64,000 bases of DNA, from the NCBI GenBank assembly GCA_047602755.1, contig JBLKOM010000002.1, positions 56,272 through 120,271 on the forward strand, in the 5' to 3' direction. Source of the DNA: Candidatus Woesearchaeota archaeon. GTDB taxonomy: Archaea; Nanobdellota; Nanobdellia; Woesearchaeales; JACJVV01. Under the pieces are notes generated by a model, which saw nothing but the letters and a program-made list of their open reading frames with translations, searched no databases and had not been told where the DNA came from. Position numbers and translations under genes: made by a program. Shown in pieces: positions 1,870 to 54,315 of the stretch. Numbering within the stretch: position 1 is the stretch's first letter; every line of letters starts with the position of its first letter.

Positions 1870-2271
1870 TTAAGCTTTCAAATGATGTTTTGCACCACAT
1901 GCTTGACATTTGATATAATTAACTTGATTTTCATTTATTATTTTTGTTTCTGGTTTTCCGCACTCACTACATAAAACATAAATATTTGCATATTGTCTTA
2001 TTTTTTGATTTATATTCTGTGAAGATAATTTTCTATTAAAAACTAAACTAGAATTTTTTAAATCACCTGAAGTTGCTAATTCTTTTAATAAGTATTTTAA
2101 TAAATGCTGTGGTTCACGATGTAAAATATTACAAACAAGATTAAAATTACTAATAATAGTTTTATTTCCTTGTAAATGCCCTTTAACTTTTGGAATTTCA
2201 AATCTTTCCCTAACTGAAACTATTTCAGGTAAATTATTAATTGCTCTTTTTAAAAGTAAATTATAATCCAT
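1870..2271 (-). CDS. eif2b: Translation initiation factor 2 beta subunit (aIF2-beta)
   Basis: 133 aa with a C-terminal C2-C2 zinc ribbon (CSECG...CQACG) and an aIF2-beta core (LLKYLLKELATSGDL). The size matches the archaeal protein. Confidence 0.85.
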   Translation of the reverse strand: MDYNLLLKRAINNLPEIVSVRERFEIPKVKGHLQGNKTIISNFNLVCNILHREPQHLLKYLLKELATSGDLKNSSLVFNRKLSSQNINQKIRQYANIYVLCSECGKPETKIINENQVNYIKCQACGAKHHLKA

Positions 2272-2316
2272 AAAAATAAAATTATTAATATCTATATAAA
2301 TGTATGTATAAAAAAT

Positions 2317-2342
2317 AACCCACCCCTCAATTTCTCATGGAA
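2317..2342 (-). promoter_or_regulatory. Origin recognition box (ORB), inverted orientation
   Basis: Plus strand reads aacccacccctcaatttctcatggaa. The reverse complement is TTCCATGAGAAATTGAGGGGTGGGTT, which matches the archaeal ORB pattern TTCCA-N3-GAAA-N4-GGGGT and the second box at 2629-2656. Confidence 0.7.
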
Positions 2343-2343
2343 A

Positions 2344-2628
2344 ATAAAATAAAAAAACAGAAAAAAAAGAAAAAAATTATTTTAAAAAAATTAAAAAAAG
2401 AAAAAATAAGAAAAAATAAATATATTTTTTATTATATATATATTAATATATTATTATATATTATATATATTATATTATATTATTTTTTATATTTAAATTA
2501 AAAAAATTGAATATAAATCATTTTTAAAATTTTTATTTTTTCTTTTTTTCTTTTTAATAATAATATATTTAATTATTTATTTATATTATGATATAATTAG
2601 TAATTAATTTCAATTAATTTATTATTAA
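2344..2628. other. Predicted DNA unwinding element of oriC (near-pure A/T)
   Basis: About 285 bp of almost exclusively A/T with short tandem TA/ATT repeats. It is bracketed by two inverted ORBs and sits immediately upstream of cdc6. Confidence 0.65.
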
Positions 2629-2656
2629 TTCCACAAGAAATCAAGGGGTCTGGGGT
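2629..2656 (+). promoter_or_regulatory. Origin recognition box (ORB)
   Basis: ttccacaagaaatcaaggggtctggggt. This matches the ORB consensus (TTCCAnnnGAAAnnnnGGGGT followed by a G-string) and lies about 50 bp upstream of the cdc6 start. Confidence 0.75.
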
Positions 2657-2709
2657 ATTATTCTTATAAAACAACAAATTATTTAAAGAGTATTGTTTCC
2701 TATGGAAAT

Positions 2710-3915
2710 ATGAATAAACAATTATCTCATGTTTTTGAAAAATATATGAAATTTAAACCTATTTTTCATCAAAAACAATTTCTTCAATCAAATTACATTC
2801 CAGATACTATTGAACATCGTGATAAAGAAATTAATAGTGTTGCTGAAATTTCAGCATCAGCTTTAAGAAATGAAAAACCATCAAATATTTTTATATATGG
2901 TAAAACTGGAACAGGAAAAACATTAACTATTCAATATACAATGCAACAACTTTTAGAAACTTCAAAGGTTCACTCTATTCCTCTTAAAATAATATATATT
3001 AATTGTAAATTAAAAAAAATAGCAGATACAGAATATAGAATTATGGCACAAATGATAAGGGAATTAGGAAAAGAAGTTCCACCAACAGGTTTACCAACAG
3101 ATGAAATATATAAAATTTTTATGAACATTGTTGATAAAGAAAATCAAATAATAATACTTATTCTAGATGAAATTGATCAGTTAGTAAAAAAAGCAGGAGA
3201 TGAAATATTATATAATTTAACAAGATTAAATACAGAACTAAAAAAAGCACAAATTTCAATTATTGGTATTTCTAATGATTTAAGATTTTCAGATAATTTA
3301 GATCCTCGCGTTAAAAGTTCATTAAGTGAAGAAGAAATTGTTTTTCATTCATATAACGCTGTTCAATTAAAATCTATTTTAAAAAAACGTAGTTCATTAG
3401 CTTTTGTGCAGGGTGTTTTAGAACAGGGGTTAATTGAAAAATGTGCTGCTTATGCAGCAAGAGATCATGGTGATGCAAGAAGGGCATTAGAATTATTAAG
3501 AGTTTCAGGTGAGATTGCTGAACGAGAAGGAAGTAAAAAAGTAACAATACAACATTTAGATTTAGCAGAATCAAAAATTGAAAAAGACAGAATTATTGAT
3601 GTTGTTATAGCACAACCAAAACAGCATCAATTAGTTTTATTTTCAATAGTTCGAATATCAGAGAAAAGATCAAAAGCAATTTTTACAGGTGAAATTTATG
3701 AATATTATAAAGTACTATGTATTGAATCATCTATTCGTCCGCTAACTCAAAGGCGTGTTTCTGATATAATAGCAGAATTTGATATGCTTGGATTAATAAA
3801 TGGAAAAATAATTTCTCAAGGAAGATATGGTAGAACACGTGAAGTTATTCTTTCAATACCAGAAGAAACCAAAATAAAAATAAAACAGATTCTTAAAGAA
3901 TCTTTAGAATCCTAA
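2710..3915 (+). CDS. cdc6: Cdc6/Orc1 replication initiator (AAA+ plus C-terminal winged helix)
   Basis: 401 aa with Walker A (GKTGTGKT), Walker B (LILDEID) and a C-terminal winged helix. It lies directly next to the ORB-flanked origin. Confidence 0.9.
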   Translation: MNKQLSHVFEKYMKFKPIFHQKQFLQSNYIPDTIEHRDKEINSVAEISASALRNEKPSNIFIYGKTGTGKTLTIQYTMQQLLETSKVHSIPLKIIYINCKLKKIADTEYRIMAQMIRELGKEVPPTGLPTDEIYKIFMNIVDKENQIIILILDEIDQLVKKAGDEILYNLTRLNTELKKAQISIIGISNDLRFSDNLDPRVKSSLSEEEIVFHSYNAVQLKSILKKRSSLAFVQGVLEQGLIEKCAAYAARDHGDARRALELLRVSGEIAEREGSKKVTIQHLDLAESKIEKDRIIDVVIAQPKQHQLVLFSIVRISEKRSKAIFTGEIYEYYKVLCIESSIRPLTQRRVSDIIAEFDMLGLINGKIISQGRYGRTREVILSIPEETKIKIKQILKESLES

Positions 3916-3922
3916 TTTTTAG

Positions 3923-5437
3923 GTGTTGTCTATGGATTTTGTTAACAAAAAGAAAGAAATAATTAAATTTTTTTTAAATAATGATAGTCTTATTTCTCCA
4001 ACTGAAATTTCTTTTTTTGAAAAAGAAGAGAATGTTGATATTATCTATAGTATGCTAAAAAAAAATGTTTCGATTATTGATATTCAAAAAAAAATAAAGG
4101 AAATTGATATAGTTAATAATGAAAAAAATATAATTTTAAAAAAACAAGAAAATGAAATTAAAAAAAAAGCGAATGTAATTATAAAAAAATCATATGATTT
4201 AGTTTCTATGAAGCGCGATGTTGATCATTTTGTATCTTACTTTTTTTCTCGTTATAAACAAATTGAACAAATGTTAAGAAAAAGAAAAGAATTAGAGAAC
4301 ATATTATCTATTATACGTCTAAAATCTAAAAAAGATCGCGAAACTGTTGCTATAATTGGTCTTGTTCGTAATAAAGAAATAACAAGAAATGACAACATAA
4401 TATTAACATTAGAAGATCCTACAGGCGAAATAAAAGTATTAGCTAATAAAAATAATACTGAAATTTATAATTTTGCAAAAGAAATAGTAAATGATGAAAT
4501 AATAGGTGTTGTAGGAATAAATGGTGATAATATTTTATTTGCTAATAATATTATACAACCTGACATTCCTTTAGATAAGGAATTTAAAAAATATGATAAA
4601 GATGAATATGTTGTATTTTTATCTGATATTCATGTTGGGTCTAAGTATTTCCTTGAAGATGATTTTAATAAATTTATATCATGGATTCGTCAAGAAACAG
4701 GTTCTGAAAAACAAAAATCGATAGCAAAAAAAGTAACTCATGTTATTATTGCTGGTGATATAGTTGATGGGGTTGGTATATATCCAAATCAAGAAAAGGA
4801 ATTAACTATTTTAGATATTCATCAGCAATATGAAGAAGCTTTTAAGTATATAAGTAAAATACCTAAGCATATCAATGTAATCATATGTCCGGGTAATCAC
4901 GACGCAGTAAGGCTTTCTGAACCCCAACCTAAGTTAAATAAAAATTATGCTAAATCTTTATATGAATTAGAAAATGTTCTTATGGTTTCTAATCCTGCTG
5001 TAATAAATATCTGCTCTAATCAAGATTTTTCAGGTTTTGATATTTTATTGTATCATGGTTACAGTTTTGATTATTATGTAGCCAATGTAGACTCGTTAAG
5101 ATTAAGTGGAGGATATGACTGCCCAGATTTAATAATGAAATTTCTTCTTAAACGCCGTCATTTGGCACCTTCTTATACCTCCACATTATTTATTCCAGAA
5201 ATCACTAATGATGCACTAGTTATCGAAGATATTCCTGATTTTTTTATAACTGGCCATATCCATAAAACAGCAGTATCAAATTATAGAAATATAACATTAA
5301 TTTGTGGTAGTTGTTGGCAACGAACAACATCTTTTCAAATAAAAGTAGGACATCATCCAGAACCATCACGTGTTCCTGTAGTTAATTTAAGAACTAGAAA
5401 AGTAACAATTTTAAATTTTGGAAGTACTGAAGAATAA
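3923..5437 (+). CDS. DNA polymerase II (PolD) small subunit DP1, a calcineurin-like phosphodiesterase
   Basis: 504 aa with metallophosphoesterase motifs (DIHVGS, GDIVDG, GNHD) and an OB-like N-terminal region. It is followed immediately by the large subunit. Confidence 0.85.
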   Translation: MLSMDFVNKKKEIIKFFLNNDSLISPTEISFFEKEENVDIIYSMLKKNVSIIDIQKKIKEIDIVNNEKNIILKKQENEIKKKANVIIKKSYDLVSMKRDVDHFVSYFFSRYKQIEQMLRKRKELENILSIIRLKSKKDRETVAIIGLVRNKEITRNDNIILTLEDPTGEIKVLANKNNTEIYNFAKEIVNDEIIGVVGINGDNILFANNIIQPDIPLDKEFKKYDKDEYVVFLSDIHVGSKYFLEDDFNKFISWIRQETGSEKQKSIAKKVTHVIIAGDIVDGVGIYPNQEKELTILDIHQQYEEAFKYISKIPKHINVIICPGNHDAVRLSEPQPKLNKNYAKSLYELENVLMVSNPAVINICSNQDFSGFDILLYHGYSFDYYVANVDSLRLSGGYDCPDLIMKFLLKRRHLAPSYTSTLFIPEITNDALVIEDIPDFFITGHIHKTAVSNYRNITLICGSCWQRTTSFQIKVGHHPEPSRVPVVNLRTRKVTILNFGSTEE

Positions 5438-5484: not shown

Positions 5485-8400
5485 ATGGAATCGAAAAAAA
5501 TATCAAAATATTTTGAATCTCTTGAAAATGAAACTCTTAAAGCATTAAGAATTGCAACAACAGCAAGAATGAAGGGGTTTGATCCAGAAAAAAAAGTTGA
5601 CATACCTATTGCAAAAAATATGGCTGAAAGAGTTATAGGTCTTATTTCTGCTGTTGCACCACAAATACAAAATTCAAATATAATTACTCGAATTGTTGAA
5701 TTAGAAAAAGAATATAATCCATTAGATTGGCGTGTTGGTTTTAAGATAGCAGCCGAGGTAGCACAAGAAAAATTTTGTAAATTTGAAGATCGAAAAGAAG
5801 CAATTGAAGTAGGAATAAGAACTGGATTTACATATCTTACAGGTGGAATTGTTTCAGCACCATTAGAAGGGTTTGTTGAAATTAAAATAAAAAAGCGTGC
5901 AGATGGTAAAGAATATTTAGTATCTTGCTATGCTGGACCAATACGAGGGGCAGGTGGTACAGCGGCTGCTTTATCAGTTGTTCTTTCAGATTATGTATCA
6001 ACTGCAATGGGTTTTTCTAAATACGACCCTACTGAACAAGAAATTAATCGTGTAGTTACTGAACTATATGATTATCATGATAGAATTACTAATCTTCAAT
6101 ATTTACCTTCTGAAGAAGAAATTCGTTTTATGGTTAAAAATTTACCTATAGAGGTTGATGGTGATCCAACTGAAAGAATTGAAGTAACAAATTATAAAGA
6201 TTTACCAAGAATAGAGACAAATTTAATAAGAGGTGGTATTTGTTTAGTTATTGGTGAAGGATTGTGTCAAAAAGCTCCTAAGCTGTGGAAACGTTTAGAG
6301 ATATGGGGACAAGATTTTGGAATAAATTGGAATTTTCTAAAAGATTTTTTAGAGTTAAAGAAAAAAATGCAAGCTCATGGTAAAAAGAAAACTGAGTCAA
6401 AAGGAATAAGTCCTAATTTTACTTTTATTAATGATATTGTGGCTGGTAGACCTGTTTTAACTTATCCTATGGAATATGGTGGTTTTCGATTAAGAATGGG
6501 CCGTACTCGAACTTCAGGTTTTTCTTGTGTAAGCATAAATCCTTATACACTTTATTCATTAGATAATTTTATTGTTTATGGAACACAAATAAAAATAGAA
6601 AGACCTGGCAAAGCAGCATCTGTTACTGTTTGTGAATGTATTGATGGACCAACTGTACTTCTTAATGACGGATCAGTGGTTCAGATTACAAAAGAAACAA
6701 AAGAAAATATAAAAAAAATATCAAAAATATTATTTCTAGGTGATATATTAATTAATTATGGGGACTTTTCTGAGAATGGTCATTCATTAGTTCCTGTGGG
6801 TTATTGCGAAGAATGGTGGATACAAGATTTTGAAAAAAAAGCAATAGAAATAGTGGGCGATCTTAATTTTAAAAAATTATCTTCAGTTATTAATATTCAA
6901 GAAGAAAAAATTTCTTTAATGTTTCACAATATATTAAATTATAAAATTTCATATGATGAAGCATACAAAATATCAAAATCAATAGGTATTCCTTTGCATC
7001 CAAAATTTATTTATTATTATACAGCCATCAATAATGCAGAACTAAACCATCTTTTAACTAGTCTTCGTGGATGCAAAGTTTTGTATTCAGATAATAATCA
7101 CATTAAAAGTTTAATAATCAATCATAATCCAGACCTTAAAAAAATATTAGAAAATACAGGAATACCTCATGATTTAACATCAAATGAATTTATAATTATT
7201 AAAGATGATATTGCAAAAACAATTTATAACACATTTCAAATATCTGTTCCAGGTGATATTTATAAAAATATAGTAGAAGATAATTCAGGAAAAAATGTTC
7301 TTGAAATAATTAATATAATTTCTGATGTTAAAATAAGTGATAAAGCTGGCACTTTTATTGGTGCAAGAATGGGCCGCCCTGAAAAAGCAAAAATGAGAAA
7401 GCTTCAAGGCTCTCCTCAAGTTTTATTTCCTGTAGGTGAGGAAGGGGGTCGATTAAAAAGTTTTCAATCATCGATGTCAAAAGGAGAAATAACAAGTAAT
7501 TTTCCTTTATATTTTTGTGAAGATTGCAAGAAAAAAACAGTATACAATAATTGTCATATTTGTGGAAAAAAATCTAAAAAAATTCTTTTCTGTCCAAATT
7601 TAAATAAAGAAATTATGTCTGAAGAAATCCCTATACAATTAGATCCAAATGCAAAAAGATTTAATAATATAACTATAAATATTGATGAATATATAGAATC
7701 AAGTTTAAAAATATTAAAAAGTAAAGTTTATCCTGATTTAATTAAAGGGATTAAAACAACTTTGAATAAAGAACATATTCCTGAACATTTAGTAAAAGGT
7801 TTTCTTCGAGCAAAGTATGAAATTTATGTTAATAAAGATGGTACTACACGTTATGATATGTCAGAAACACCAATAACTGCATTTAAACCTAAAGAGATTG
7901 GAACATCTATTGAAAAATTAAATGAATTGGGCTATACACATGATATTGAAGGAAATAAATTAGAGTATGATAATCAATTAGTTGAAATATTTCCACAAGA
8001 TTTGATTTTGCCGTCTGGTGAAAATTCAATGGAAGAACAAGCTGATGATGTAATGTTTCGAATTGGAAATTTTATAGATGAATTACTTGAGCGTTTATAT
8101 AATCTTAAACCATATTATAATTTTAAATCAAAGCAAGATATAATTGGTTCAATAATAATCTGTCTTGCACCACATATTTCTTGTGGAACAATTGGAAGAG
8201 TAATAGGGTTCTCAAAAAATCAAGTTATGGCTGCTCATCCAATGATGCATGCAGCTGTCAGAAGGGATTGTGATGGTGATGAAGCATGTTTTATTATGTT
8301 AATGGATGCTTTTCTTAATTTTTCAAGACAATATTTACCTGACCGCCGTGGTACAAGAACAATGGATGCCCCTTTAGTACTTTCGACAAAGATAATCCCT

Positions 8401-9018
8401 TCAGAAGTTGATGATCAAGTTCATGGATTAGACGTTGTTAATAAATATCCTTTAGAATTGTATCTTGCTGCTAACGAGTACAAAATGCCATGGGAAGTAA
8501 AAATAGGCCAATTAAAAGATAGACTAAATACTGAGAAACAATATGAGTCTTTTTTAAGTACTCATCCTATTGAAAATATTAATTCTGGACCTAAAGTATC
8601 ATCCTATAAATTATTACCTTCGATGAAAGAAAAATTAGAAGGTCAGATGAATTTAGCTGTTAAAATACGTGCTGTAAATGAATCTAACATTGCTGCTATG
8701 GTGATTCAAAAACATTTTCTAAAAGATATTAAAGGTAATTTACGAAAATTTTCATTACAGCAATTCCGCTGTGTACAATGTAATTCTAAATATACCCGCC
8801 CTCCATTAGTTGGAAAATGTACTAAATGTGGTGGAAAACTTTTGTTTACTATATCAGAAGGAAGCGTAATTAAGTATCTTGGTCCTTCATTAGAATTAGC
8901 TCATACTTATGATGTTCCTGCTTATTTAAAGCAAACACTTGAATTAACAAAAGACCGTGTTGATAGTCTTTTTGGTAAAGACAAGGAAAAACAAGAAGGT
9001 TTATCAAAATTCTTTTAA
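5485..9018 (+). CDS. DNA polymerase II (PolD) large subunit DP2
   Basis: 1177 aa with cysteine clusters near the C-terminus (CVQCN...CTKCGG) and internal zinc motifs (CEDCKKK...CHICG). No intein-sized insertion is evident. The oriC-cdc6-polD synteny is conserved. Confidence 0.9.
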   Translation: MESKKISKYFESLENETLKALRIATTARMKGFDPEKKVDIPIAKNMAERVIGLISAVAPQIQNSNIITRIVELEKEYNPLDWRVGFKIAAEVAQEKFCKFEDRKEAIEVGIRTGFTYLTGGIVSAPLEGFVEIKIKKRADGKEYLVSCYAGPIRGAGGTAAALSVVLSDYVSTAMGFSKYDPTEQEINRVVTELYDYHDRITNLQYLPSEEEIRFMVKNLPIEVDGDPTERIEVTNYKDLPRIETNLIRGGICLVIGEGLCQKAPKLWKRLEIWGQDFGINWNFLKDFLELKKKMQAHGKKKTESKGISPNFTFINDIVAGRPVLTYPMEYGGFRLRMGRTRTSGFSCVSINPYTLYSLDNFIVYGTQIKIERPGKAASVTVCECIDGPTVLLNDGSVVQITKETKENIKKISKILFLGDILINYGDFSENGHSLVPVGYCEEWWIQDFEKKAIEIVGDLNFKKLSSVINIQEEKISLMFHNILNYKISYDEAYKISKSIGIPLHPKFIYYYTAINNAELNHLLTSLRGCKVLYSDNNHIKSLIINHNPDLKKILENTGIPHDLTSNEFIIIKDDIAKTIYNTFQISVPGDIYKNIVEDNSGKNVLEIINIISDVKISDKAGTFIGARMGRPEKAKMRKLQGSPQVLFPVGEEGGRLKSFQSSMSKGEITSNFPLYFCEDCKKKTVYNNCHICGKKSKKILFCPNLNKEIMSEEIPIQLDPNAKRFNNITINIDEYIESSLKILKSKVYPDLIKGIKTTLNKEHIPEHLVKGFLRAKYEIYVNKDGTTRYDMSETPITAFKPKEIGTSIEKLNELGYTHDIEGNKLEYDNQLVEIFPQDLILPSGENSMEEQADDVMFRIGNFIDELLERLYNLKPYYNFKSKQDIIGSIIICLAPHISCGTIGRVIGFSKNQVMAAHPMMHAAVRRDCDGDEACFIMLMDAFLNFSRQYLPDRRGTRTMDAPLVLSTKIIPSEVDDQVHGLDVVNKYPLELYLAANEYKMPWEVKIGQLKDRLNTEKQYESFLSTHPIENINSGPKVSSYKLLPSMKEKLEGQMNLAVKIRAVNESNIAAMVIQKHFLKDIKGNLRKFSLQQFRCVQCNSKYTRPPLVGKCTKCGGKLLFTISEGSVIKYLGPSLELAHTYDVPAYLKQTLELTKDRVDSLFGKDKEKQEGLSKFF

Positions 9019-9405: not shown

Positions 9406-9655
9406 TTTTTGATTAGTTTAAATATATTTGATTATTATCTAGTTATTTTGATGTGTTTTTCATTATATGCTTAAAATCGTTTTAACCATAATGCTTTTAA
9501 ATGATTTTGTAAGTTAAACAATATATATTTTCCTGTCACTACTTTAAAATACTAAAAAACGAAATATTTAAATATACCCCAGCCATTTGCAATATTTAAA
9601 TGGTTTTAATTATAAGAAAAAGGGGCAATAGAAGCAATATATTGTGGTGGTATTA

Positions 9656-10465
9656 ATGATTGTTCAAAAAGAATTTTTAAATAAACTAAATGTGCTTGGG
9701 TTAAATTCATATGAAGCAAAATTATGGGCAGCTCTATTGTCCAGAGGCGTTTCTACAGCAGGTGAGTTAAGTGACATAGCAAATGTTCCACGTTCAAGAT
9801 CTTATGATGTACTTGAAAGTCTTGAAAAAAAAGGATTTGTAGTAATGAAGCTAGGAAAGCCTATAAAATATATAGCTGTTAAGCCTTCTGATGTTCTTGA
9901 TCGTGTTAAACAAAGAATAATGGAAGAAGCTGAAAACAGTAGTCAAACTCTTGATAATTTACGCGATAGCGAAATGTTAAATGAATTAAATCTTTTACAT
10001 TCAAAAGGGATTGATATGGTTGATCCTTCAGAACTCTCAGGAAGTTTTAAAGGAAGAAATAATCTATATACTCATTTAGAATCACTTATGAAATCAGCAG
10101 AAAAATCAATCATAGTTGTAACAACACATGATGGTTTAATACGAAAAGCTGATTCATTTAGACGAGTACTTTATCGTGCTAAAGAAAATGGGGTTAAAAT
10201 CCAAATAGTTGCACCAATAAATAAAGATAATATTGAGGCAGCAAGAAAACTTTCAGATTATGCAGATATTAGACATTGTCCAGATATTCTAGGTCGTTTT
10301 ATTGTAGTTGATGATACACAAATAACATTCATGCTTGTTAGCGACTCAGAAGTTCATCCAAATTATGATTCTGGTGTATGGGTAAATTCACCATTTTTTG
10401 CTTCTACAATGTCAAATCTTTTTTCTTTAAATTGGAAAAAATTAACTCCATTAAATAAACTTTAA
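9656..10465 (+). CDS. TrmB-family transcriptional regulator, paralog 1
   Basis: N-terminal TrmB-type winged HTH (YEAKLWAALLSRGVSTAGELSDIANVPRSRSYDVLESLEKKGFV) plus a C-terminal TrmB_C-like domain. The ORF track starts at GTG 9644. The ATG at 9656 (MIVQKEFL) aligns with the paralog's MIVKEEFL start. Confidence 0.7.
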   Translation: MIVQKEFLNKLNVLGLNSYEAKLWAALLSRGVSTAGELSDIANVPRSRSYDVLESLEKKGFVVMKLGKPIKYIAVKPSDVLDRVKQRIMEEAENSSQTLDNLRDSEMLNELNLLHSKGIDMVDPSELSGSFKGRNNLYTHLESLMKSAEKSIIVVTTHDGLIRKADSFRRVLYRAKENGVKIQIVAPINKDNIEAARKLSDYADIRHCPDILGRFIVVDDTQITFMLVSDSEVHPNYDSGVWVNSPFFASTMSNLFSLNWKKLTPLNKL

Positions 10466-12234: not shown

Positions 12235-14244
12235 TTAAATTTTTTGAATTGAACCACGTTTTGGTTCAAAAATATCTCCACTTCTTTTTAATTTATCGAT
12301 TACTTCACTAATTTCTTCTTCAGACATACCTTTATCTTTTGCCATTTCATCAATATCTTCTATTTTTATGGTTTTTCCAACTTTATTTTCAAGTTCATTG
12401 ATTATTTCTTTAATGATTAGTATTTTATTTCTTTGAGAGCTAGGTGTATCTGTGGCTATTCTATCAACATCAAATGTTCCAGTTTCCTCATCAAAGGCTA
12501 TTAACTTTAAGCAATGATGTACAAGATTTACAGCATTTTGTGCATCAGTTTTGGTTATTTTATCTGCTAGTCGTAATCGCGCATTCGCTTCTGATAACCT
12601 AACTAATCCTTCTAATTGTCTTGCAGTAATTGGAACGCTTTTAGAATTTCCAGAATTCCTCATTTTTAAATAATATTTTTTTAATTCTTCAATCGCACTA
12701 TCTGTTAATTGTGGAAAAACATTTTGTCTAACATATGCTACATATTTTCTAAGAAATTCAGTCTCAAAAGGTGTCGAATCATTATTTGTAGGATTTTGAT
12801 GTACTTTAAGAATAAATGATGCTAATCTATCATCTTTTTTTTCATCAGGTAAATCTTTAACAGGAAAAATTAAATCAAATCTATTAATTAAAGTAACAGG
12901 AAGATTAATTTGTTCTGCTATTGTACTATATGGATCAAACCTTCCAAATTTAGGATTTGCGGCTGCTAATACTGTTGTTTCAGCTCGTAGTGTAGCTTGG
13001 ATATTTGCTTTTGAAATTGTTACAGTCTGCTGTTCTAGTGCTTCATGCATTGCACTAGTATCTTCTTTAGTCATTTTGTCTAATTCATCAATGCAGCACA
13101 TTCCTTTATTAGCTAAAACTAATGCTCCTGCTTCCAAAGCCCAGTCATTTAAGAAATCATCTTTAACGACAGAAGCAGTTAATCCAGCACCACTAGCACC
13201 CTTTCCTGATACATATTTTCCTTTAGGAGATACTTTTTGTATTCTTCTAATCATTTGAGATTTACCACTTCCTGGGTCCCCTACAAGTAATATATGAATA
13301 TCTCCTCTTGTAGTAACTCCGTCATTTCTTACTTTTCGTACTCCTCCCATTAATTGAAGAACTAAAGCCTCTTTTATTAATTCATGTCCATATATACTTG
13401 GAGCAATTGATGTAATTATTTTCTTATGTAATTGGGCATCTTTTGCTGCTTTCTTTATTTCTTCTATATCTTTTTTTGATATTTTAATATCAGTATAATC
13501 TTCTTGAATTGCTTCAGTATTATTTGCTTCAATTAAGAGATCAAAAACTGTACTTTTTGTTCCTGATTTTGTAATAGTTGGTATTTCTTTTACGACTCCA
13601 ATTATTCTTACTGAACTACCAGGACTTGTTTTTTTTTCATTTAATGGAGATACTAAATCATTTTTCAAAAATATATTCATTCTTTTTGGTTGTCCACCAC
13701 CTTCAAGATCTTCACTTAACTCTTCTAATTTTAGATGCTGTGCATCAATTAATTCTTTAGATAATAAATTAAACTTACCTTTTCTTCCACAACCACATTT
13801 ACTTGGTTCTTTGAATTGTTTATCTAATTGTAATATTGGTATAATATTACCACAGCTAGGGCATTCAAATCTTGCAACAGTTACTTGCGGTCTTACATCT
13901 GATTTTTGCCTAACAACTCCTTCAAACCACAATAATTTTCCAAGATGTTCACTTCTTATATCTCTTAATAATATTCGCTGACTTCTTGGAAGATTATCAA
14001 TTCTGACTGTAAAATTTTTGATTATATTTGGTAAATCAAACTGTTCTACAGCAATCTCAAACGCTTTTAATAATTCTTCAGGTTCATCAAGTAATAAATC
14101 AGCTATTTCAGGATTAAACTTAGCTAATAAACTAAAATCAATTTTTAGAGCTTTTTCTCCTTTTCCAATAACTTCTAATAATTTAGAATAATAGTGTCTT
14201 TCAAGAAATTCTTGTAATGTTTTTATTTGTGCTTGGACTTCCAT
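12235..14244 (-). CDS. mcm: MCM replicative helicase
   Basis: 669 aa with an N-terminal zinc finger (CPSCGN...CGCG), Walker A (GDPGSGKSQ), Walker B and arginine-finger region, and a C-terminal wH. No intein. Confidence 0.9.
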   Translation of the reverse strand: MEVQAQIKTLQEFLERHYYSKLLEVIGKGEKALKIDFSLLAKFNPEIADLLLDEPEELLKAFEIAVEQFDLPNIIKNFTVRIDNLPRSQRILLRDIRSEHLGKLLWFEGVVRQKSDVRPQVTVARFECPSCGNIIPILQLDKQFKEPSKCGCGRKGKFNLLSKELIDAQHLKLEELSEDLEGGGQPKRMNIFLKNDLVSPLNEKKTSPGSSVRIIGVVKEIPTITKSGTKSTVFDLLIEANNTEAIQEDYTDIKISKKDIEEIKKAAKDAQLHKKIITSIAPSIYGHELIKEALVLQLMGGVRKVRNDGVTTRGDIHILLVGDPGSGKSQMIRRIQKVSPKGKYVSGKGASGAGLTASVVKDDFLNDWALEAGALVLANKGMCCIDELDKMTKEDTSAMHEALEQQTVTISKANIQATLRAETTVLAAANPKFGRFDPYSTIAEQINLPVTLINRFDLIFPVKDLPDEKKDDRLASFILKVHQNPTNNDSTPFETEFLRKYVAYVRQNVFPQLTDSAIEELKKYYLKMRNSGNSKSVPITARQLEGLVRLSEANARLRLADKITKTDAQNAVNLVHHCLKLIAFDEETGTFDVDRIATDTPSSQRNKILIIKEIINELENKVGKTIKIEDIDEMAKDKGMSEEEISEVIDKLKRSGDIFEPKRGSIQKI

Positions 14245-14351: not shown

Positions 14352-14906
14352 TTATTTCTTATTTACTTTTTTTAAGTTTTCAATAAGCTTTTCAACAGCA
14401 ATTCCTATTGCATCATCAGATTTTGTTCCTGTGCATACAATTTTTCCATTACTGAACAACAAAAAGGTAGCTTGACAATCTCTAAGTTTATAAACTAATC
14501 CTGGAAACTGTTCTGGTTCATATTCAGTGTTCTCCAGTTTCATAGCAAGTTCATTTAGATTCAAAATAATTCCAATTTCACCAGAAGCGACTATATTTTG
14601 AATAGTTATTTCAGGTTTTACTGTTATTTTAACATTAATTTTTTCTAAACTTTTAATTATTTGTTTAATACTTTCATCAACTTCTTGCATTGTACGTGCA
14701 CCAGTGCATACTATTTTCCCTGATGAAAAAATTAATGCAGATGTTTTTGGTTCTTTTATTCTGATAACTAGTCCAGGAAACTGTTCTGGATTATATTCAG
14801 TATTAGATAATGTAGCTGCCATTTTTTCTAATGGTATTGCTTTTTCGAATGATGTAGAAACAACAATATTTACAATTCTGATATTTTTTGGTTCAGGCTT
14901 TGCCAT
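14352..14906 (-). CDS. tbp: TATA-box binding protein
   Basis: 184 aa with two direct repeats, each containing PEQFPGLV...F.SGKIVCTG. Confidence 0.9.
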   Translation of the reverse strand: MAKPEPKNIRIVNIVVSTSFEKAIPLEKMAATLSNTEYNPEQFPGLVIRIKEPKTSALIFSSGKIVCTGARTMQEVDESIKQIIKSLEKINVKITVKPEITIQNIVASGEIGIILNLNELAMKLENTEYEPEQFPGLVYKLRDCQATFLLFSNGKIVCTGTKSDDAIGIAVEKLIENLKKVNKK

Positions 14907-15153
14907 TTGAGTAACCCCCGAAGATTATATTATATATTTATTTATAAATAAAAAGGAGAGCCTATATTTAAATACTTCGTTTTGAAAATAACCATTTTAA
15001 GATATATATTTTTAAATGATGCTGCCCCCATCATTTCAGATGTAATTTTAATATAAATTTATTTTTTTATTTATACTTATTTACGATATTCGTATTTATT
15101 TTAAATATGAAAATAAATGTTATTATGTTGCGTTATATTTCTAAATTTATTTT

Positions 15154-16068
15154 TTATGCTTGGACTTTTTTAGCATCTTTAAATGCTTTTTCTGTTTCAT
15201 TATATGCCATTTCTTCATATGAAATAAGTACTTTAACAGATAAAACAATTTCATCTAATATCTTTGTTTTTCGATGCAATTTTTTTGCTATTTTTTTTAC
15301 GATATCTTGTTCAACAGCAGTCTTATCAGAATGTGATTTTGCAAATTTTATTATATTTAAATTTAAATGTGATATCTCTCTACAACGCATTCTTGTTTCT
15401 TGGAGTTCATGCAATATCTTTTTCTCAATTGTCATTATTTTTTCAAGCTCTAATTCTTCTTCTCGTATCTCTCTGTCCTGATATTTAGCAGCTTTCTTTT
15501 GTGTTTTACTTAAGCCGCCTTCAGCTTTTAGTTCTCGTTCAAATGAATCAAAACTATGAATATCACGATGTAATAATCTATCTTCTTTAGTAACAAATTC
15601 AAGAATACGTTCACTTATATTTTCAGGTTTTAGTAATAATTTCCAAATTTGGTCAATTAATTCATTTTCTTCTAAACATATCTTTTCAATTTCTCCTGAT
15701 TGAGGAATACCTACTCCTGTTTTTTCAATATGCTCTCTTCTTTCTCTTCGTAATAATTTTTCAATGAATGGAACTATTTTTATTTTTTCTAATTTAATTT
15801 TATGTTCTAACTCACTTATCTTATGCATAATTTCATATGAAATTTTTTGTTCTTGTTTTTCTACATATTCAATTTTAGGAATAGTTTCGATTAATTTTGC
15901 TTCTTCTTTCATTATGTTTTCTCTTTCTTCTTCCATTCGTCTTTCATACTTAATTCTATTTTTCTCTGCATGTCTTCCATGTCCTCTTCTAATAAACTTC
16001 CATGTTAGAAATAAAATTAAGACAACTAATACTAAATCTGCAATTCCAATTATACTTTCGATATCCAT
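15154..16068 (-). CDS. N-terminally anchored, highly charged coiled-coil protein (hypothetical)
   Basis: 304 aa with one N-terminal TM helix, then E/K/R-rich heptad-like sequence throughout. The start is 5 bp downstream of the preceding membrane-protein gene, so they are probably co-transcribed. Confidence 0.4.
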   Translation of the reverse strand: MDIESIIGIADLVLVVLILFLTWKFIRRGHGRHAEKNRIKYERRMEEERENIMKEEAKLIETIPKIEYVEKQEQKISYEIMHKISELEHKIKLEKIKIVPFIEKLLRRERREHIEKTGVGIPQSGEIEKICLEENELIDQIWKLLLKPENISERILEFVTKEDRLLHRDIHSFDSFERELKAEGGLSKTQKKAAKYQDREIREEELELEKIMTIEKKILHELQETRMRCREISHLNLNIIKFAKSHSDKTAVEQDIVKKIAKKLHRKTKILDEIVLSVKVLISYEEMAYNETEKAFKDAKKVQA

Positions 16069-16073
16069 TTTAT

Positions 16074-16646
16074 TTAATTTCCTTTAATATTGAGGTATAA
16101 TCCTAATGGTATTAATATGAATAGTCCTGTAATTAAGATTAAAAATGCACTACTTGTTCTTCCCATATTATACATAAGGTAAAAATATAATCCTCCTGCA
16201 ATTGTTAATGAAAATAAAAGCCTAGTGATATTATCACTGTTTTGCATTCCTGAGTAGATACTCCATGCTAAGAATGCACAAGTAGCAAAAATAATTAATA
16301 CTCCCCAAGGCCCAGTTATTGCTGAAATAAATGCATCTACGGAACTCCCAGGTTCTTTTATAAAACCCCATCCAATTGAAATAACTGATAATAATGAAAT
16401 GCACCAAGCAACAATATTTCCTTGGGAATTAACAGTATTTTGCTCACTACCTTTGAAAACAGGAACTCTGCTTAATAATATCCTAACAAGGTTCCATATC
16501 ATTATTGTTAATATTGTAAGAAGAACAAAGAATAATGCCATTTCATTTTGAAATATGCCCTTTACAAATTCTCCAAGAATCCTAATTCCTTCGATAAGGT
16601 CATTTATTGCAGGATCTGATACCATATTTTTATATTTCAAGTTCAA
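16074..16646 (-). CDS. Membrane protein, about 5 TM helices (hypothetical)
   Basis: 190 aa, hydrophobic throughout. It is divergent from TrmB paralog 2. Confidence 0.4.
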   Translation of the reverse strand: MNLKYKNMVSDPAINDLIEGIRILGEFVKGIFQNEMALFFVLLTILTIMIWNLVRILLSRVPVFKGSEQNTVNSQGNIVAWCISLLSVISIGWGFIKEPGSSVDAFISAITGPWGVLIIFATCAFLAWSIYSGMQNSDNITRLLFSLTIAGGLYFYLMYNMGRTSSAFLILITGLFILIPLGLYLNIKGN

Positions 16647-17022
16647 GCATATATAAAATTATTTCTTTTTCTTAATGAAGTATATAGATAGTTAGCGTTT
16701 TTTAATAAAAATAATTTATTTACATTACTATCAAATTAGAATGGTTATAAGTCTTTTTTTGGAATAAACTTTATTATAGCTTATTGCTATACTATTTTTT
16801 AACATTTATGATTTAACATTCTAAATTGAATAATCTAAATTTTTATAAATCTAATTCACAGTATAGTTTAGTATTGTCACATTGTTGGAGTTAAAAAAAG
16901 TATAATTATAATTCGTAGTAACTGTTACATAGATAAAAACCGTAACATATTAATAGTAGTACACTTTTTTTATTGTTGTGTTGGGACAACAACCCAATAA
17001 AAAAAGAGGGGGAAGGTATAAA

Positions 17023-17838
17023 ATGATTGTCAAAGAGGAATTTTTAAACAAATTAAGACGTTTTTTTTCATTAAATCTCTATGAGGTTAAAATTTGGGCA
17101 GCTTTATTGTCTAGAGGAGTTTCTACAGCTGGTGAGTTAAGTGATATTGCAAATGTTCCGCGTTCAAGATCTTATGATGTTCTTGAAAGTTTAGAAAAGA
17201 AGGGTTTTGTCGTTATGAAATTAGGAAAACCTATCAAATATATTGCTATTTCTCCTTCTGAAGTTGTTGAGCGCGTTAAGAAAAATATGAAAATAGAAGC
17301 TGACGAAAAGATAAAACGACTTGAAGATTTAAAAGATAATGAACTTCTTGAAGAATTAAATACATTGCATTCACAAGGAGTTGAATTAGTTGAACCTACT
17401 GATTTATCAGGTAGTTTGAAAGGTAGACATAATTTATACAATCATCTTGAATTAACAATCAGAAATGCAGAAGATACTGTCGAAATAATGACAACATCAC
17501 AGGGCTTAATGCGTAAAATCGAAGGTCTTAAACCTGTTTTTGAAAAACTCAAAAAACGTGGTGTTAAAATTAGAATTGCAGCACCTATAACCAAGCAAAA
17601 CATGTCAGCAGTAAAAGACATTTCATCAGTAGCTGAAGTAAAGCATACAGATGCAAAAGCAAGATTTACTATTGTTGATGGAAAAGAACTTATCTTTATG
17701 GTAATGGACGATGAAGAAGTTCATCCTACATATGATATTGGTATATGGGTAAATACTCCTTTTTTTGCATCTGCTCTTCAAACATTATTTGAAGTTGCTT
17801 GGAAAGGACTAAAAAAAGTTGATGTTAAAGCAAAATAA
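17023..17838 (+). CDS. TrmB-family transcriptional regulator, paralog 2
   Basis: Same architecture as 9656..10465. The ATG at 17023 is preceded by GAGGGGGAAGG (Shine-Dalgarno). The track's GTG start at 16978 adds 15 unmatched residues. Confidence 0.7.
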   Translation: MIVKEEFLNKLRRFFSLNLYEVKIWAALLSRGVSTAGELSDIANVPRSRSYDVLESLEKKGFVVMKLGKPIKYIAISPSEVVERVKKNMKIEADEKIKRLEDLKDNELLEELNTLHSQGVELVEPTDLSGSLKGRHNLYNHLELTIRNAEDTVEIMTTSQGLMRKIEGLKPVFEKLKKRGVKIRIAAPITKQNMSAVKDISSVAEVKHTDAKARFTIVDGKELIFMVMDDEEVHPTYDIGIWVNTPFFASALQTLFEVAWKGLKKVDVKAK

Positions 17839-30780: not shown

Positions 30781-31080
30781 ATAGGGGGATGAGTTAGCTT
30801 TCGGTAAACTGAGGAAAGTCCACCCACTAAGTTAGGTTGCTTATCGTAAGATAAGTTCCAGAAATGGAAGGCAACCGCCCAGAAACGTACTGCCTTATTT
30901 AATGGAATGAAAACTGTAAAATAATGGTGACATTATATAAACAGTCGACGTCAATAAGGTAAGTTGAAACGGCGAGCCCCTGCCAGTGCAACTCATATGA
31001 GGCTAAGTTAAATGCTAGCAAGGATGATCAGCATTAATGTGCAAAAAGCATCCTACAGAAGGTGGCTTATCACTCCCTAT
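30781..31080 (+). ncRNA. rnpB: RNase P RNA (archaeal type)
   Basis: GC-enriched about 300-nt region. It contains the universally conserved P4/CR-I sequence GAGGAAAGTCCacc and CR-V ACAGAAggtGGCTTAtc. The 5' atagggg can pair with the 3' ccctat (P1). No ORF is present. Confidence 0.85.
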
Positions 31081-31107
31081 ATTTTTTATGTTTAATAAGA
31101 GAAAAAA

Positions 31108-39925: not shown

Positions 39926-41929
39926 TTATCCTTTATAATTGCTATGTAAACTAGCTATAAGATCCACAGCAGATCTCATTTTTTTTATTTTCTCTAAAGA
40001 AAAAATATTGTGATAATTCTCCTCAATGATTTGTTGTGCAAAAATGGCATTACTAATAAAAGAATCACGTAAATGTTGAGTCCCTTTTTTATCTTTTGAA
40101 AAGCTACAATATCCAAATGCTTTAACTGAAACTGATGCATAATAATGAGCATATATCAATTCTGGTTCTAAGTTAAAACCATTTAACTTGGCAAATCTAT
40201 CAATCCATCTATTCCTAGTCCCAAAATCCTCTTCATTTCTTTCAAGTAAATCTTGTGATTCAAGTAATCTTACAAGCATATATATTGGGTCAGAATTAGG
40301 TCTAGCTTCATGATCGATAAAATAAATTCTTCCTTTTAAAATCAAATCATTTCTTATTACAGGTTTTTTTGTTATTATAAAATTATTTGGATTAGCATCA
40401 ACATCATAAACTTGTTGAAAGTGAGTAGCAAGTGTTAAACATTCACTTAAACCATCATATAATATTTGTTTTTGTGATGGATTAAAATTATCACAACTTG
40501 AAATATATTTTTTTATCATATCATCAAGATTAGTGTTGCTATTATTAATTCCATATCTAGATATGTGAGTTAACCCAGTTATAATACTATCAAAAATAGT
40601 TTCCTTTTGCCCTTCAAATTTTTCTTTATCACTTTTACTCATTAAAAGTTCTAACAATTCCTTTAAATTACATCCATTCTCATAATCAAAGCAAATTAAT
40701 ACTTCATCATCAAGTGTACTTACTTTTTTATTATCTAAAACAGCAACTATCTCAGGAAACCTCCATTCAAAAAAATTATCACCTGTGATTTTATGCTCAT
40801 CAAATAGTTTAATTAAGTGTCTAGTTTGCCTTATTTCAAGTTCTGCGTCTATACTTTTTTTTCTTTTTAAAATTAATTGATTTGTTATATATCCAAAATC
40901 AATAGTATAGGTTTTATTATTTGTTTCTAATGTTGTCAAAAATTGTTCAGGGTTCCTTTGAAGATTATTAAAAGCTTGGCATAAGTATTCTTCACGCTGT
41001 TCTTGTGTTGCAGCTGTCTCAAACCTAAAAAAGAAGCTTTCTAATTCTAATCCTCTTTGTTCAATCTCTTCAATCCAAAAATCCATTTTTTCTGGATAAA
41101 AAAACATTACGTCTTGTAAATTTTTTAGTATATTTGTTAGATCTGGTTGTTCAAATGCTTGATGTGTAATTCTTAAATTTTTTACAAGTGATTTGTAAAA
41201 AAACGAAAAAAAGTTTTTTTCATATTTAGTTAAACGTCTATTCTCTTTTGCAAGTTCTGCACATAAATCTATTATTACATCTATATCTGTTTCATTATGT
41301 ATTTTATAATTTATATCAAAAATATTTGCCAATCTATATATGGGTTGTTTATAATCACCTTTTGCCAAGTATTTATCTAGTTTTTTGAGTGATGATTTTT
41401 GATAGTATTTTATACTTAAATACCAACCAGCACTCAATCCTGCTGCATATACACCTATAAGGTTTTGATGTTCTAAATTAACTTTATTAGCATTATAAAT
41501 CATAATTGCTGGAGGTGCTACTTGAATAGTCCTATAAACTAAATTCTCTAATAAGCTTAATTCTATTTTAAAAGGATTTTTTTTATTGTAAAAATAGTAT
41601 GCACCAAAAAGTACTAATGCAATTATGTTCATACCATATGTAAAATTTTGATATCTTCTTGAAAGATCAGAAAATGTAACAATTTCATCATTTTCATCAA
41701 TATAATAAATTGCAAAATTATTAAATCTTGGAACTTTTGCATCAGGGGATCTTCTATATACTTCTCTTTCTATTGCAGTCTCTCTTACTAATTTAGTTTG
41801 ATTTACTACATGGTTATATTCAATTAAACCAATAATTAAGGTACCTGTAAATATTGAGAAATTAAAGATTTGTCTAGAATAATATGAAAAATATTTTTTA
41901 CTTTTATCTATTATCTCTGTTAGTTTCAA
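39926..41929 (-). CDS. Large hypothetical membrane-anchored protein (667 aa)
   Basis: About 4 TM helices in the first 190 aa, then roughly 470 aa of soluble domain with no recognised catalytic signature. Its start overlaps the upstream THUMP gene by 26 nt on the same strand. Confidence 0.4.
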   Translation of the reverse strand: MKLTEIIDKSKKYFSYYSRQIFNFSIFTGTLIIGLIEYNHVVNQTKLVRETAIEREVYRRSPDAKVPRFNNFAIYYIDENDEIVTFSDLSRRYQNFTYGMNIIALVLFGAYYFYNKKNPFKIELSLLENLVYRTIQVAPPAIMIYNANKVNLEHQNLIGVYAAGLSAGWYLSIKYYQKSSLKKLDKYLAKGDYKQPIYRLANIFDINYKIHNETDIDVIIDLCAELAKENRRLTKYEKNFFSFFYKSLVKNLRITHQAFEQPDLTNILKNLQDVMFFYPEKMDFWIEEIEQRGLELESFFFRFETAATQEQREEYLCQAFNNLQRNPEQFLTTLETNNKTYTIDFGYITNQLILKRKKSIDAELEIRQTRHLIKLFDEHKITGDNFFEWRFPEIVAVLDNKKVSTLDDEVLICFDYENGCNLKELLELLMSKSDKEKFEGQKETIFDSIITGLTHISRYGINNSNTNLDDMIKKYISSCDNFNPSQKQILYDGLSECLTLATHFQQVYDVDANPNNFIITKKPVIRNDLILKGRIYFIDHEARPNSDPIYMLVRLLESQDLLERNEEDFGTRNRWIDRFAKLNGFNLEPELIYAHYYASVSVKAFGYCSFSKDKKGTQHLRDSFISNAIFAQQIIEENYHNIFSLEKIKKMRSAVDLIASLHSNYKG

Positions 41930-42989
41930 AAATATACACCTTCATGAGTTCTTTACCTTGCATCACCTCTCTTTGATGTATTAACTTGTAATCATTTTGT
42001 TCTGCAATTTCTAATGCCGCATCAATATTATTCCCTATACAAATTATTTTTCCGTCTTTTTTTAATATTTTTTTTGTTACTTCAAAGAAATATCTGTAGA
42101 TCTTAATAACTTTTTGCTTTGTTTCTTTACCAATCACAGGTAATTGTGTAATTATTTTATCAATATTTTCATATTTTAAATCTAAATCTTCGGTTTGTAT
42201 TCTTGAAAAATTTAAAAATTTATTAATTCCTGCAATTTTAGCATTTTTTTCAGATGCTTTAATATTCGGCATTGAGCTATCTGCAAGATTTATTTCACAA
42301 TCAACTTTCTTATCATTATCACTTAATTCTATATTCCAGCCAATTTTATTAAATGTAAATTTATCTTTAGCATAATGATGTACCGATTTACCCAAAAAAT
42401 AATGTATTAATTCAATTCCTATTTCTCCACTTCTGCAAAAAGGATCTAATATTTTATCTTTTTTTTTTACATCTGCTATTCTTGTTACTGAATATGCTAT
42501 TGTACCTCGTAATGAGTTCTTATTTGCAAATACTTTGTAATCACGATTATATAATTCTTTTGAACTTAAATTTATTGTTAGATAAAATTTTTTCCCAATA
42601 ATTTCAATATTATATAAAATTCCTGGATTCTTATATACTGCTTTCTTTTTTGTTTTTTTAATTATTTGATTAGAAACATATAACTGTACATCATTACTTT
42701 TGAAAGGTTTTATACCATTAATACTACAATCTAGAAAAAATGTATTATTTATTTCAAATTCAACATCAGATATATCAATTTCAGGAATATCATTTATGAT
42801 CCCTTCTTTTAATAATACACCTATTTTTTCAATAGATTGGGATACAAAAGCAAATTTTGCTATTTTTTCTTTTGTAGCTTCAAAAATACAGCATCCAGTT
42901 TCTTTTTTAGCTTTTATATTCAAAATTTCTTGAATATCATTAAGAAGTATATCCTCAAAGCCTAATGCACAAAACGCAATACATTTCAT
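41904..42989 (-). CDS. THUMP-domain RNA methyltransferase (Trm14/TrmN-like)
   Basis: 361 aa with an N-terminal ferredoxin-like/THUMP region and a C-terminal class I MTase (DPFCRSGEIGIE). It overlaps the gyrA stop by 4 nt. Confidence 0.5.
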   Translation of the reverse strand: MKCIAFCALGFEDILLNDIQEILNIKAKKETGCCIFEATKEKIAKFAFVSQSIEKIGVLLKEGIINDIPEIDISDVEFEINNTFFLDCSINGIKPFKSNDVQLYVSNQIIKKTKKKAVYKNPGILYNIEIIGKKFYLTINLSSKELYNRDYKVFANKNSLRGTIAYSVTRIADVKKKDKILDPFCRSGEIGIELIHYFLGKSVHHYAKDKFTFNKIGWNIELSDNDKKVDCEINLADSSMPNIKASEKNAKIAGINKFLNFSRIQTEDLDLKYENIDKIITQLPVIGKETKQKVIKIYRYFFEVTKKILKKDGKIICIGNNIDAALEIAEQNDYKLIHQREVMQGKELMKVYIFETNRDNR

Positions 42990-54158: not shown

Positions 54159-54275
54159 TATGGACGGTCATAGCGGATTGGTCCTACCTGGTCTCATTTC
54201 GAACCCAGAAGTAAAACAATCCTGCGTTTTCCTGCGTACTGTTCTTACGAACGGGAGATGGAATTCGCTGTCCTC
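54159..54275 (+). rRNA. rrf: 5S ribosomal RNA (stand-alone copy)
   Basis: tggacggtcatagcgg...cctggtctcatttcgaacccagaagtaaaac...gcgtactg...gggagatgg...gctgtcc. The universally conserved 5S blocks (GGUCAUAGCGG, GGUCUCAUUUCGAACCC.GAAGU, GUACUG) are present. The 5' ggacgg can pair with the 3' ctgtcc (helix I). No 16S or 23S is nearby. Confidence 0.85.
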
Positions 54276-54315
54276 TTTTCTTTGTATTTACTAAAAAATA
54301 TGTAATCTAGAAAAA

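Follow-up and report, generated by a model that had tools for sequence, protein, structure and literature searches.

A probable oriC1-type replication origin upstream of orc1/cdc6 in a Woesearchaeota archaeon

The origin oriC1 of Sulfolobus carries two origin recognition boxes (ORBs), ORB2 and ORB3, inverted around an A/T-rich duplex unwinding element (DUE), and each of the two boxes is needed for firing. One Orc1-1 monomer binds per ORB with a defined polarity, a third ORB is also present, the MCM helicase is directed to the DUE, and initiation has been mapped to a DUE/ORB junction (PMC12141716). In Pyrococcus, binding of Cdc6 depends on 'TTCC' and 'GAA' cores, mini-ORBs are numerous, and a second Cdc6-bound ORB cluster lies inside dp1 (PMC1904270). 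A consensus for euryarchaeal ORBs, GTTCCAGTGGAAAC-AAA----GGGGG, has been published (PMC1868953). We analyzed a 64-kb stretch of the genome of a Candidatus Woesearchaeota archaeon, called the window below, in which the 438-nt intergenic region between the genes for aIF2-beta and for the initiator Orc1/Cdc6 is very probably a chromosomal replication origin of the oriC1 type (Orc1-1/ORB).

The sequence elements that define the oriC1-type class are all present at the locus. As in oriC1 of Sulfolobus/Saccharolobus, inverted full ORBs, an A/T-rich DUE and a third candidate Orc1 site are located upstream of a gene for an Orc1-1-class initiator (Table 1). The DUE is longer and more extreme than its Sulfolobus counterpart, with 286 bp at 95.8% A+T compared with an ORB3-DUE-ORB2 module of 130 bp in total. 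Further differences are that the third site is a mini-ORB without a G-string, placed over the cdc6 core promoter, and that PolD genes follow cdc6. Sulfolobus is not known to have PolD.

With Pyrococcus and other Thermococcales, the locus shares the order oriC, cdc6, dp1, dp2 and the two long ORBs inverted around A/T-rich DNA (PMC1904270). Unlike Pyrococcus, however, it has no cluster in dp1, where motif scans detected neither an ORB nor a mini-ORB, and its origin region holds a single mini-ORB. The locus is therefore Thermococcales-like in gene order but not with respect to the dp1 cluster. An exact copy of the 13-nt core of ORB-R (TTCCACAAGAAAT) does occur within the DP2 gene at 8176-8188 on the minus strand, where it encodes I-S-C-G. 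This copy is absent from the homologous place in close relatives, and thus probably reflects chance rather than an intragenic cluster of the Pyrococcus kind.

Both full ORBs keep the pattern TTCCA-N3-GAAA-N4-GGGGT, with the TTCCA...GAAA core proximal to the DUE and the G-string distal to it, an arrangement that we do not equate with the polarity seen in model systems. An initial annotation of this DNA, made without database searches, had proposed two inverted ORBs at these sites, and both of its sequences were reproduced exactly. When scored with a position weight matrix (PWM), ORB-R reaches 31.6 and ORB-L 29.4 out of a maximum of 37.5. A degenerate consensus of the two boxes, TTCCAYRAGAAATYRAGGGGT, has only these two matches on both strands of the 64 kb when up to three mismatches are allowed. 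Dinucleotide shuffles give a chance expectation of 0.02 matches, and none of 100 shuffles yielded two. Scans with the consensus and the PWM revealed no further full ORBs elsewhere in the window. A PWM match near 15022 on the minus strand, beside A/T-only runs, is weak and lacks the TCCA core (CATCTGAAATGATGGGGGC), and was rejected.

Comparison with published boxes reveals both shared and divergent features. In ungapped alignment, ORB-R agrees with the euryarchaeal consensus at 14 of its 22 specified positions and ORB-L at 13 (consensus from PMC1868953), and the 'TTCC' and 'GAA' cores are present in both. The 13-nt core of Pyrococcus, TTCCAGTGGAAAT, equals that of the window, given above, at 10 of 13 positions, including these cores (PMC1904270). 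The spacing between core and G-string differs, being 8 nt in Pyrococcus, whereas GGGGT follows after 3 nt in the window. This strongly conserved GGGGT thus occupies what is a variable spacer in other ORBs, and the canonical G-string position carries only a weak G-run. An extra G-run past the core G-string is also a property of Halo-ORBs, the corresponding runs in the window being GGGGTCTGGGG and GGGGTGGG, and in haloarchaeal oriC1, too, inverted ORBs enclose the primary DUE beside orc1, and a gene for DP1 is close by (PMC1868953, PMC4010727). Haloarchaea differ from the window genome in being G+C-rich, with DUEs of ~68% A+T, many cdc6 paralogues and multiple origins. A looser analogy can be drawn with bacterial oriC-dnaA regions, in which the initiator gene also adjoins a cluster of its own binding sites and an A/T-rich DUE, with probable autoregulation from a promoter site, but the initiator family (DnaA versus Orc1/Cdc6), the box sequences and the route of helicase loading are unrelated.

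Between the boxes, the initial annotation had described about 280 bp of pure A/T. The element proves to be the least stable duplex of the window, but it is not free of G and C, as its 142 A and 132 T are interspersed with 7 G and 5 C (4.2% G+C, compared with 26.7% for the window). Every other 286-nt stretch of the window contains at least 38 G/C, and no run without G or C anywhere in the window is longer than the 98 nt at 2411-2508, within the DUE. Nearest-neighbor duplex stability is lowest here at each of four scales, 50, 100, 200 and 280 bp (z = 4.5 to 5.2). From left to right, the DUE comprises an A-rich run (2343-2420), a (TA)n/(TAT)n core at ~2420-2495 and a T-rich run at 2520-2555, the left part (2340-2420) consisting of GAAAAAAAA-type repeats. 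We considered whether this A-rich-left, T-rich-right polarity is a conserved feature, but the left half is the more A-rich in only 23 of 63 loci. On average, the polarity in relatives is the opposite of that in the window, with A-rich DNA preceding each ORB on its own strand, so the asymmetry is not a conserved property of the DUE. The second least stable tract of the window, a (TA)-rich G/C-free segment at 103-205 (z ~4, with an 80-nt A/T-only run at 126-205), lies upstream of an Lrp/AsnC-family gene (244-708) and has no associated ORB.

The product of the adjacent gene is classed as an Orc1-1 initiator by several comparisons. It passes the NCBIfam ORC1 equivalog model NF001625 with 505 bits against a cutoff of 501, and its closest relatives of solved structure are Orc1-1 of S. 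solfataricus (2QBY_A, E 7e-104) and ORC1 of A. pernix (2V1U_A, E 3e-93). The protein is 100% identical to MFT4303291.1 from a Candidatus Woesearchaeota metagenome-assembled genome (MAG). Its initiator-specific motif (ISM) PPTGLP, its recognition-helix segment QRRVS and its wing GRYGRTRE align with the DNA-contact regions of these two structures. Five residues of these segments, G127 and L128 in the ISM, R348 and R349 in the helix-turn-helix (HTH) and R372 in the wing, are invariant among 30 homologues. In S. solfataricus Orc1-1, mutation of the equivalent HTH and wing arginines weakens binding ~60-fold (PMC3089459). A tblastn search of the window found no paralogue of cdc6, which is present there in one copy only, at 2710-3915. 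An open reading frame (ORF) of 401 aa at 59202-60407, equal in length to Cdc6, encodes a tRNA-guanine transglycosylase and not a second initiator.

Five closely related loci (L081-L085), with Cdc6 proteins 76-87% identical to that of the window, all exhibit the same arrangement, including L084, whose contig begins inside the A/T-rich region and therefore lacks the left side. The four complete loci share the gene order of the window, aIF2-beta included as the left neighbor, and the MCM gene occupies the same position in the close relatives. When the intergenic regions are aligned, only ORB-L, the central TA tract, ORB-R, a AAAtTATTTAAA block and the mini-ORB are conserved, and the remainder is merely A/T-rich. 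Conservation of ORB-L extends to four of the five relatives, the missing one being L084. In each complete region, the flanking genes enclose exactly one minus-strand full ORB, at -311 to -398, and one plus-strand full ORB, at -86 to -89. Over the close relatives in general, the position of ORB-R is nearly fixed at -82 to -89 from the cdc6 start (in the window, cdc6 starts 54 nt past the end of ORB-R). Across ~21 kb of each of these four loci, only one other ORB match was found, a weak one in L083 that scores 14.8 at a threshold of 14.

To place these observations in a broader context, we surveyed 80 related loci from species-representative genomes, nearly all of them Woesearchaeota/Nanoarchaeota MAGs, with Cdc6 proteins 54-63% identical to that of the window. 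Matches to the strict pattern TCCA-N3-GAAA-N2-6-GGGG occur nearly all upstream of cdc6, with plus-strand copies near the gene and minus-strand copies farther off. The consensus of 65 such sites is (T/C)TCCA-[T/C]A[G/A]-GAAA-[T/C]-nAA-GGGGT, followed by a weak G-run. Scanning with a PWM built from these sites yields 2.24 matches per kb over the 1.2 kb preceding cdc6 and 0.047 per kb over the remaining 856 kb, a 48-fold difference. ORB motifs are thus not scattered through the related loci, just as they are confined to the origin region in the window. Facing minus- and plus-strand ORBs are present in 57 of the 59 loci that have at least 1250 nt of upstream DNA (58 relatives and the window), and this recurrence supports, on the sequence level, the reading as a replication origin that the initial annotation had offered. 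In the 63 loci with a facing pair (62 relatives and the window), the gap between the boxes has a median length of 283 nt (range 90-999) and a median G+C fraction of 0.18, compared with 0.355 for the loci. This general design is seen at its most extreme in the window, whose gap is 286 nt with 4.2% G+C. An unbiased search of 58 loci for 7-mers enriched over the 700 nt that precede cdc6 returned ATATATA at the top (29-fold), with the ORB G-string words AGGGGTG and AAGGGGT next (~6-fold).

Gene order is similarly conserved on the right side of the DUE. Pfam searches confirm that cdc6/orc1 is followed by both PolD subunits in the window, and among the 80 loci DP1 lies directly 3' of cdc6 in 79 and DP2 downstream in 73. 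The proposed canonical oriC-cdc6-polD order, as in Pyrococcus (PMC1904270), therefore holds well beyond this genome. The divergent upstream aIF2-beta is another matter. Pfam verifies it here and the clade of the window and its close relatives shares it, and in this clade a plus-strand TrmB gene is located downstream. The majority of the 80 loci instead have a TrmB-like gene as the divergent upstream neighbor, with aIF2-beta on the minus strand past DP2. One inversion is not enough to explain this difference between clades.

The survey also shows that the DUE is a systematic breakpoint of short-read assemblies in such MAGs. Sixteen of the 80 related contigs (L002, L005, L012-L015, L020, L022, L024, L027, L034, L037, L040, L052, L055 and L076) break off 86-342 nt upstream of cdc6, 14 of them just past the plus-strand ORB and within the expected DUE, where the Logan contig L084 ends too. 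Consequently, the origins of such MAGs will often be split between contigs.

Both flanking genes have candidate promoters that abut the full ORBs. On the left, the TATA-like box TTTATATA lies ~26 nt from the aIF2-beta start codon and 16 nt from ORB-L, and we infer that it is the promoter of a leaderless aIF2-beta mRNA. Archaeal TATA boxes are situated ~26 nt upstream of the transcription start. The TATA-like box on the cdc6 side is found at this distance from the ATG, which makes a leaderless cdc6 mRNA probable as well, and the mini-ORB would lie over the start of this transcript. The AAAtTATTTAAA block in this TATA region is conserved in six of six aligned sequences.

The mini-ORB itself is a third element that the initial annotation had missed. 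Located between the cdc6 TATA-like box and the ATG at 2710, it has the highest mini-ORB score of the window (18.7 of a maximum of 19.6). Equivalent elements are present at -14 to -17 in L081, L082 and L083 and in the same place in L084. Among 81 loci (the 80 relatives and the window), 28 carry a minus-strand mini-ORB within -60 to +5 of cdc6, whereas background density predicts ~0.8 such loci. Many of the 80 loci display the layout TTTATAWA, ~8 nt, TTTCnnnTGGA, 4-8 nt, ATG. The element is probably an autoregulatory site for Orc1.

These features suggest a mechanism modeled on Sulfolobus oriC1. Each full ORB would bind one monomer of the Orc1/Cdc6 encoded next to it, in fixed polarity, with the winged-helix domain on the TTCCAnnnGAAA core and the initiator-specific motif of the AAA+ domain on the GGGGT G-string. 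Because the boxes are inverted, the two bound initiators would be oriented toward one another from either side of the 286-bp DUE. In their ATP-bound state they might then recruit two MCM hexamers to the DUE in opposite orientations, the product of the nearby MCM gene being the presumed client. The window's least stable DNA, the central (TA)n tract, is where melting would probably start, and bidirectional replication would follow melting and MCM loading. Orc1 bound at the mini-ORB would most likely act as a repressor of its own leaderless mRNA. We deduce all four activities (binding, MCM loading, firing in vivo and autoregulation) by analogy and from conservation. The positions of the ORBs and the DUE place the origin within ~150 bp, which is coarser than the base-pair precision that had been claimed for it.

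Several observations weigh against this interpretation. The identity of the window ORBs to the euryarchaeal consensus is only ~60%, compared with 89% for haloarchaeal repeats, and the strong GGGGT is 5 nt nearer the core than the canonical G-string. The length of the (TA)n core may be unreliable in a short-read MAG, and since related contigs break there, the exact DUE length of the window should be treated with caution. Moreover, we infer origin activity only from conservation. Nucleotide skew is uninformative, as GC and AT skew in the window mirror gene strand and the edge of the window is 2.3 kb away from the site. When skew was pooled over 63 loci and decomposed into strand and side components, no switch in GC skew was detected (GC3, right minus left, -0.04, confidence interval (CI) -0.11 to +0.03). 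The corresponding AT3 difference of +0.09 (CI 0.03 to 0.17) is confounded by gene content, because the right flank always holds the same three genes. We therefore discarded skew as evidence in either direction. Finally, the window represents 64 kb of a 251-kb contig, which leaves room for other origins, and Thermococcus and Haloferax volcanii can do without a canonical oriC or use it only under certain conditions (PMC11005403), such that perfect architecture is no proof of the main replication route here.

The last two points bear on the possibility that the locus is a genuine Orc1-binding origin but a dormant, auxiliary or conditional one, with replication proceeding mainly from another origin or by a recombination-dependent route. 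Precedents exist: Thermococcus barophilus and T. kodakarensis tolerate the deletion of oriC and cdc6, H. volcanii tolerates that of all its origins, and origin use varies with growth phase (PMC11005403). The lack of a demonstrable skew inflection and the coverage of only 64 kb of the genome are compatible with such a scenario. Nonetheless, we regard it as unlikely. The three-element architecture is kept across lineages whose Cdc6 proteins have diverged to ~55% identity, which argues for continued selection. ORC1/Cdc6 is reported in 206 of 208 complete Nanobdellota genomes, where it is counted as a single-copy core gene (preprint 10.64898/2026.05.13.725050), and the window has one cdc6. In addition, these genomes are small and are not known to be polyploid, a state described for the archaea with a dispensable oriC (PMC11005403).

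The boxes could instead be transcriptional operators only, bound by Orc1/Cdc6 or another winged-helix factor at the aIF2-beta and cdc6 promoters, with the A/T-rich spacer being an unusually long promoter region that plays no part in initiation. The TATA-like box abutting each full ORB and the overlap of the mini-ORB with the cdc6 core promoter would suit such a role, and Orc1 paralogues such as Orc1-2 can regulate transcription (PMC9738581). However, the initiator encoded here is an Orc1-1 equivalog and not an Orc1-2-like regulator. Operators would also leave unexplained a gap of 90-999 nt that is conserved only in its low G+C content (about half the genome value) and its TA repeats, as well as the facing orientation of the boxes across this gap, which is invariable apart from two of the 59 loci. 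Furthermore, the left-hand gene varies by clade, aIF2-beta in one and a TrmB-like gene in others, while the ORB pair stays, which indicates that the boxes track cdc6 and the DUE rather than a particular regulated neighbor. A purely transcriptional function is thus very improbable. A third alternative, that the pair arose by chance as an inverted repeat within A/T-rich intergenic DNA or marks the two ends of a small non-autonomous mobile element, is effectively refuted. Although 26-28-nt inverted termini around an ORF-less A/T-rich core superficially resemble a miniature inverted-repeat transposable element and the genome is 73% A+T with abundant low-complexity repeats, the ORB motif is G/C-rich and expected in just 0.02 copies, the pair is single-copy in the window with no dispersed copies there, it keeps a fixed place beside cdc6 in relatives that lack other intergenic similarity, it matches a biochemically defined initiator-binding consensus, and Rfam and tRNA scans of the intergenic region returned no match.

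An ORB of full strength was also encountered away from the origin. In 11 relatives (L010, L018, L021, L051, L057, L063, L067 at 3546-4277 on the minus strand, L072, L075, L078 and L080), a gene of 210-260 aa located 2-5.7 kb upstream of cdc6 carries such a box in its linker. The product has an N-terminal coiled coil and a C-terminal HTH_36-like winged helix, and three members that were scanned gave no NCBIfam match. The box encodes S-I/T-G-N-x-G-V, with an unusual conserved GGG codon, and adjoins lineage-specific tandem repeats of 4 nt (CTGT, GAAT, GTGA, GCGT, GATT) or 10 nt (CATTGTTCGG). There is no local A/T-rich region around it, and the window contains no homologue of the gene. This intragenic ORB may be an Orc1-bound regulatory or titration site. 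If Orc1 does bind it, the gene could encode a regulator that is coupled to replication and possibly phase-variable, or the box could act as a datA-like site for Orc1 titration. A broader proposal would be that Woesearchaeales/Nanobdellota use a lineage-specific ORB variant, with a core, an adjacent GGGGT and a degenerate canonical G-string, whose reach extends beyond the origin to the cdc6 promoter and to this coiled-coil/winged-HTH gene in at least 11 genomes. We consider this extension speculative and rather unlikely. If true, it would constitute a layer of control not described for archaeal origins, and for the window itself it would add only the promoter mini-ORB.

The surroundings of the origin are those of a chromosome, given the genes for MCM, TBP, GyrA, PheRS, RNase P RNA and 5S rRNA in the window (Table 1). 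ARAGORN found no tRNA genes in the whole 64 kb. Two TrmB-family regulator paralogues, at 9644-10465 and 16978-17838 on the plus strand and 57% identical by tblastn, bracket a block near the origin that encodes an OB-fold protein, MCM and TBP. ORFs of 304, 190, 667 and 101 aa without a Pfam match lie at 15154-16646, 39926-41929 and 1521-1826, all on the minus strand. The 101-aa ORF has no NCBIfam match either, and it is conserved beside TFE-alpha in relatives.

Table 1. Positions of the origin elements and of selected genes in the 64-kb window
Feature	Positions	Strand	Description
ORB-L, full origin recognition box	2317-2342	-	TTCCATGAGAAATTGAGGGGTGGGTT on the minus strand (reverse complement)
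ORB-R, full origin recognition box	2629-2656	+	TTCCACAAGAAATCAAGGGGTCTGGGGT
Duplex unwinding element (predicted)	2343-2628	.	286 nt, 95.8% A+T
TATA-like box, aIF2-beta side	2293-2300	-	TTTATATA on the minus strand; read directly; putative promoter of leaderless aIF2-beta mRNA
TATA-like box, cdc6 side	2679-2688	+	TTATTTAAAG; ~26 nt upstream of the cdc6 ATG; putative promoter of leaderless cdc6 mRNA
Mini-ORB without G-string	2695-2707	-	TTCCATAGGAAAC on the minus strand; perfect core
aIF2-beta	1870-2271	-	Pfam PF01873, E 1.5e-35; divergent left neighbor of the candidate origin
orc1/cdc6	2710-3915	+	Pfam Cdc6_C, Cdc6_lid, AAA; initiator gene, classed as Orc1-1
PolD small subunit DP1	3923-5437	+	Pfam Metallophos, DNA_pol_E_B
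PolD large subunit DP2	5485-9018	+	Pfam PolC_DP2 N-terminal, central and catalytic domains
MCM helicase	12235-14244	-	Pfam MCM, MCM_OB, MCM_lid, MCM_WH_arc; ~10 kb from the candidate origin
TBP	14352-14906	-	Pfam
GyrA	42986-45556	-	Pfam
Archaeal RNase P RNA	30781-31082	+	
5S rRNA	54160-54276	+	

The architecture described here is textbook for archaea, and a locus this canonical in its biology will not surprise a specialist. What is new is this instance and the lineage-specific ORB consensus for Woesearchaeales/Nanobdellota. Complete genomes of the lineage are now rotated to cdc6 as a proxy for the origin, with the cis elements undescribed (bioRxiv 10.64898/2026.05.13.725050). A sequence-defined candidate origin and the consensus (T/C)TCCA-YAR-GAAA-Y-nAA-GGGGT are now at hand for this uncultivated DPANN lineage. 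Together with the geometry of minus-strand ORB, DUE, plus-strand ORB, TATA box, mini-ORB and cdc6, the consensus could be used to annotate origins in hundreds of Nanobdellota genomes. The same ORB/DUE geometry could also anchor estimates of growth rate from read depth and guide the design of binding experiments.

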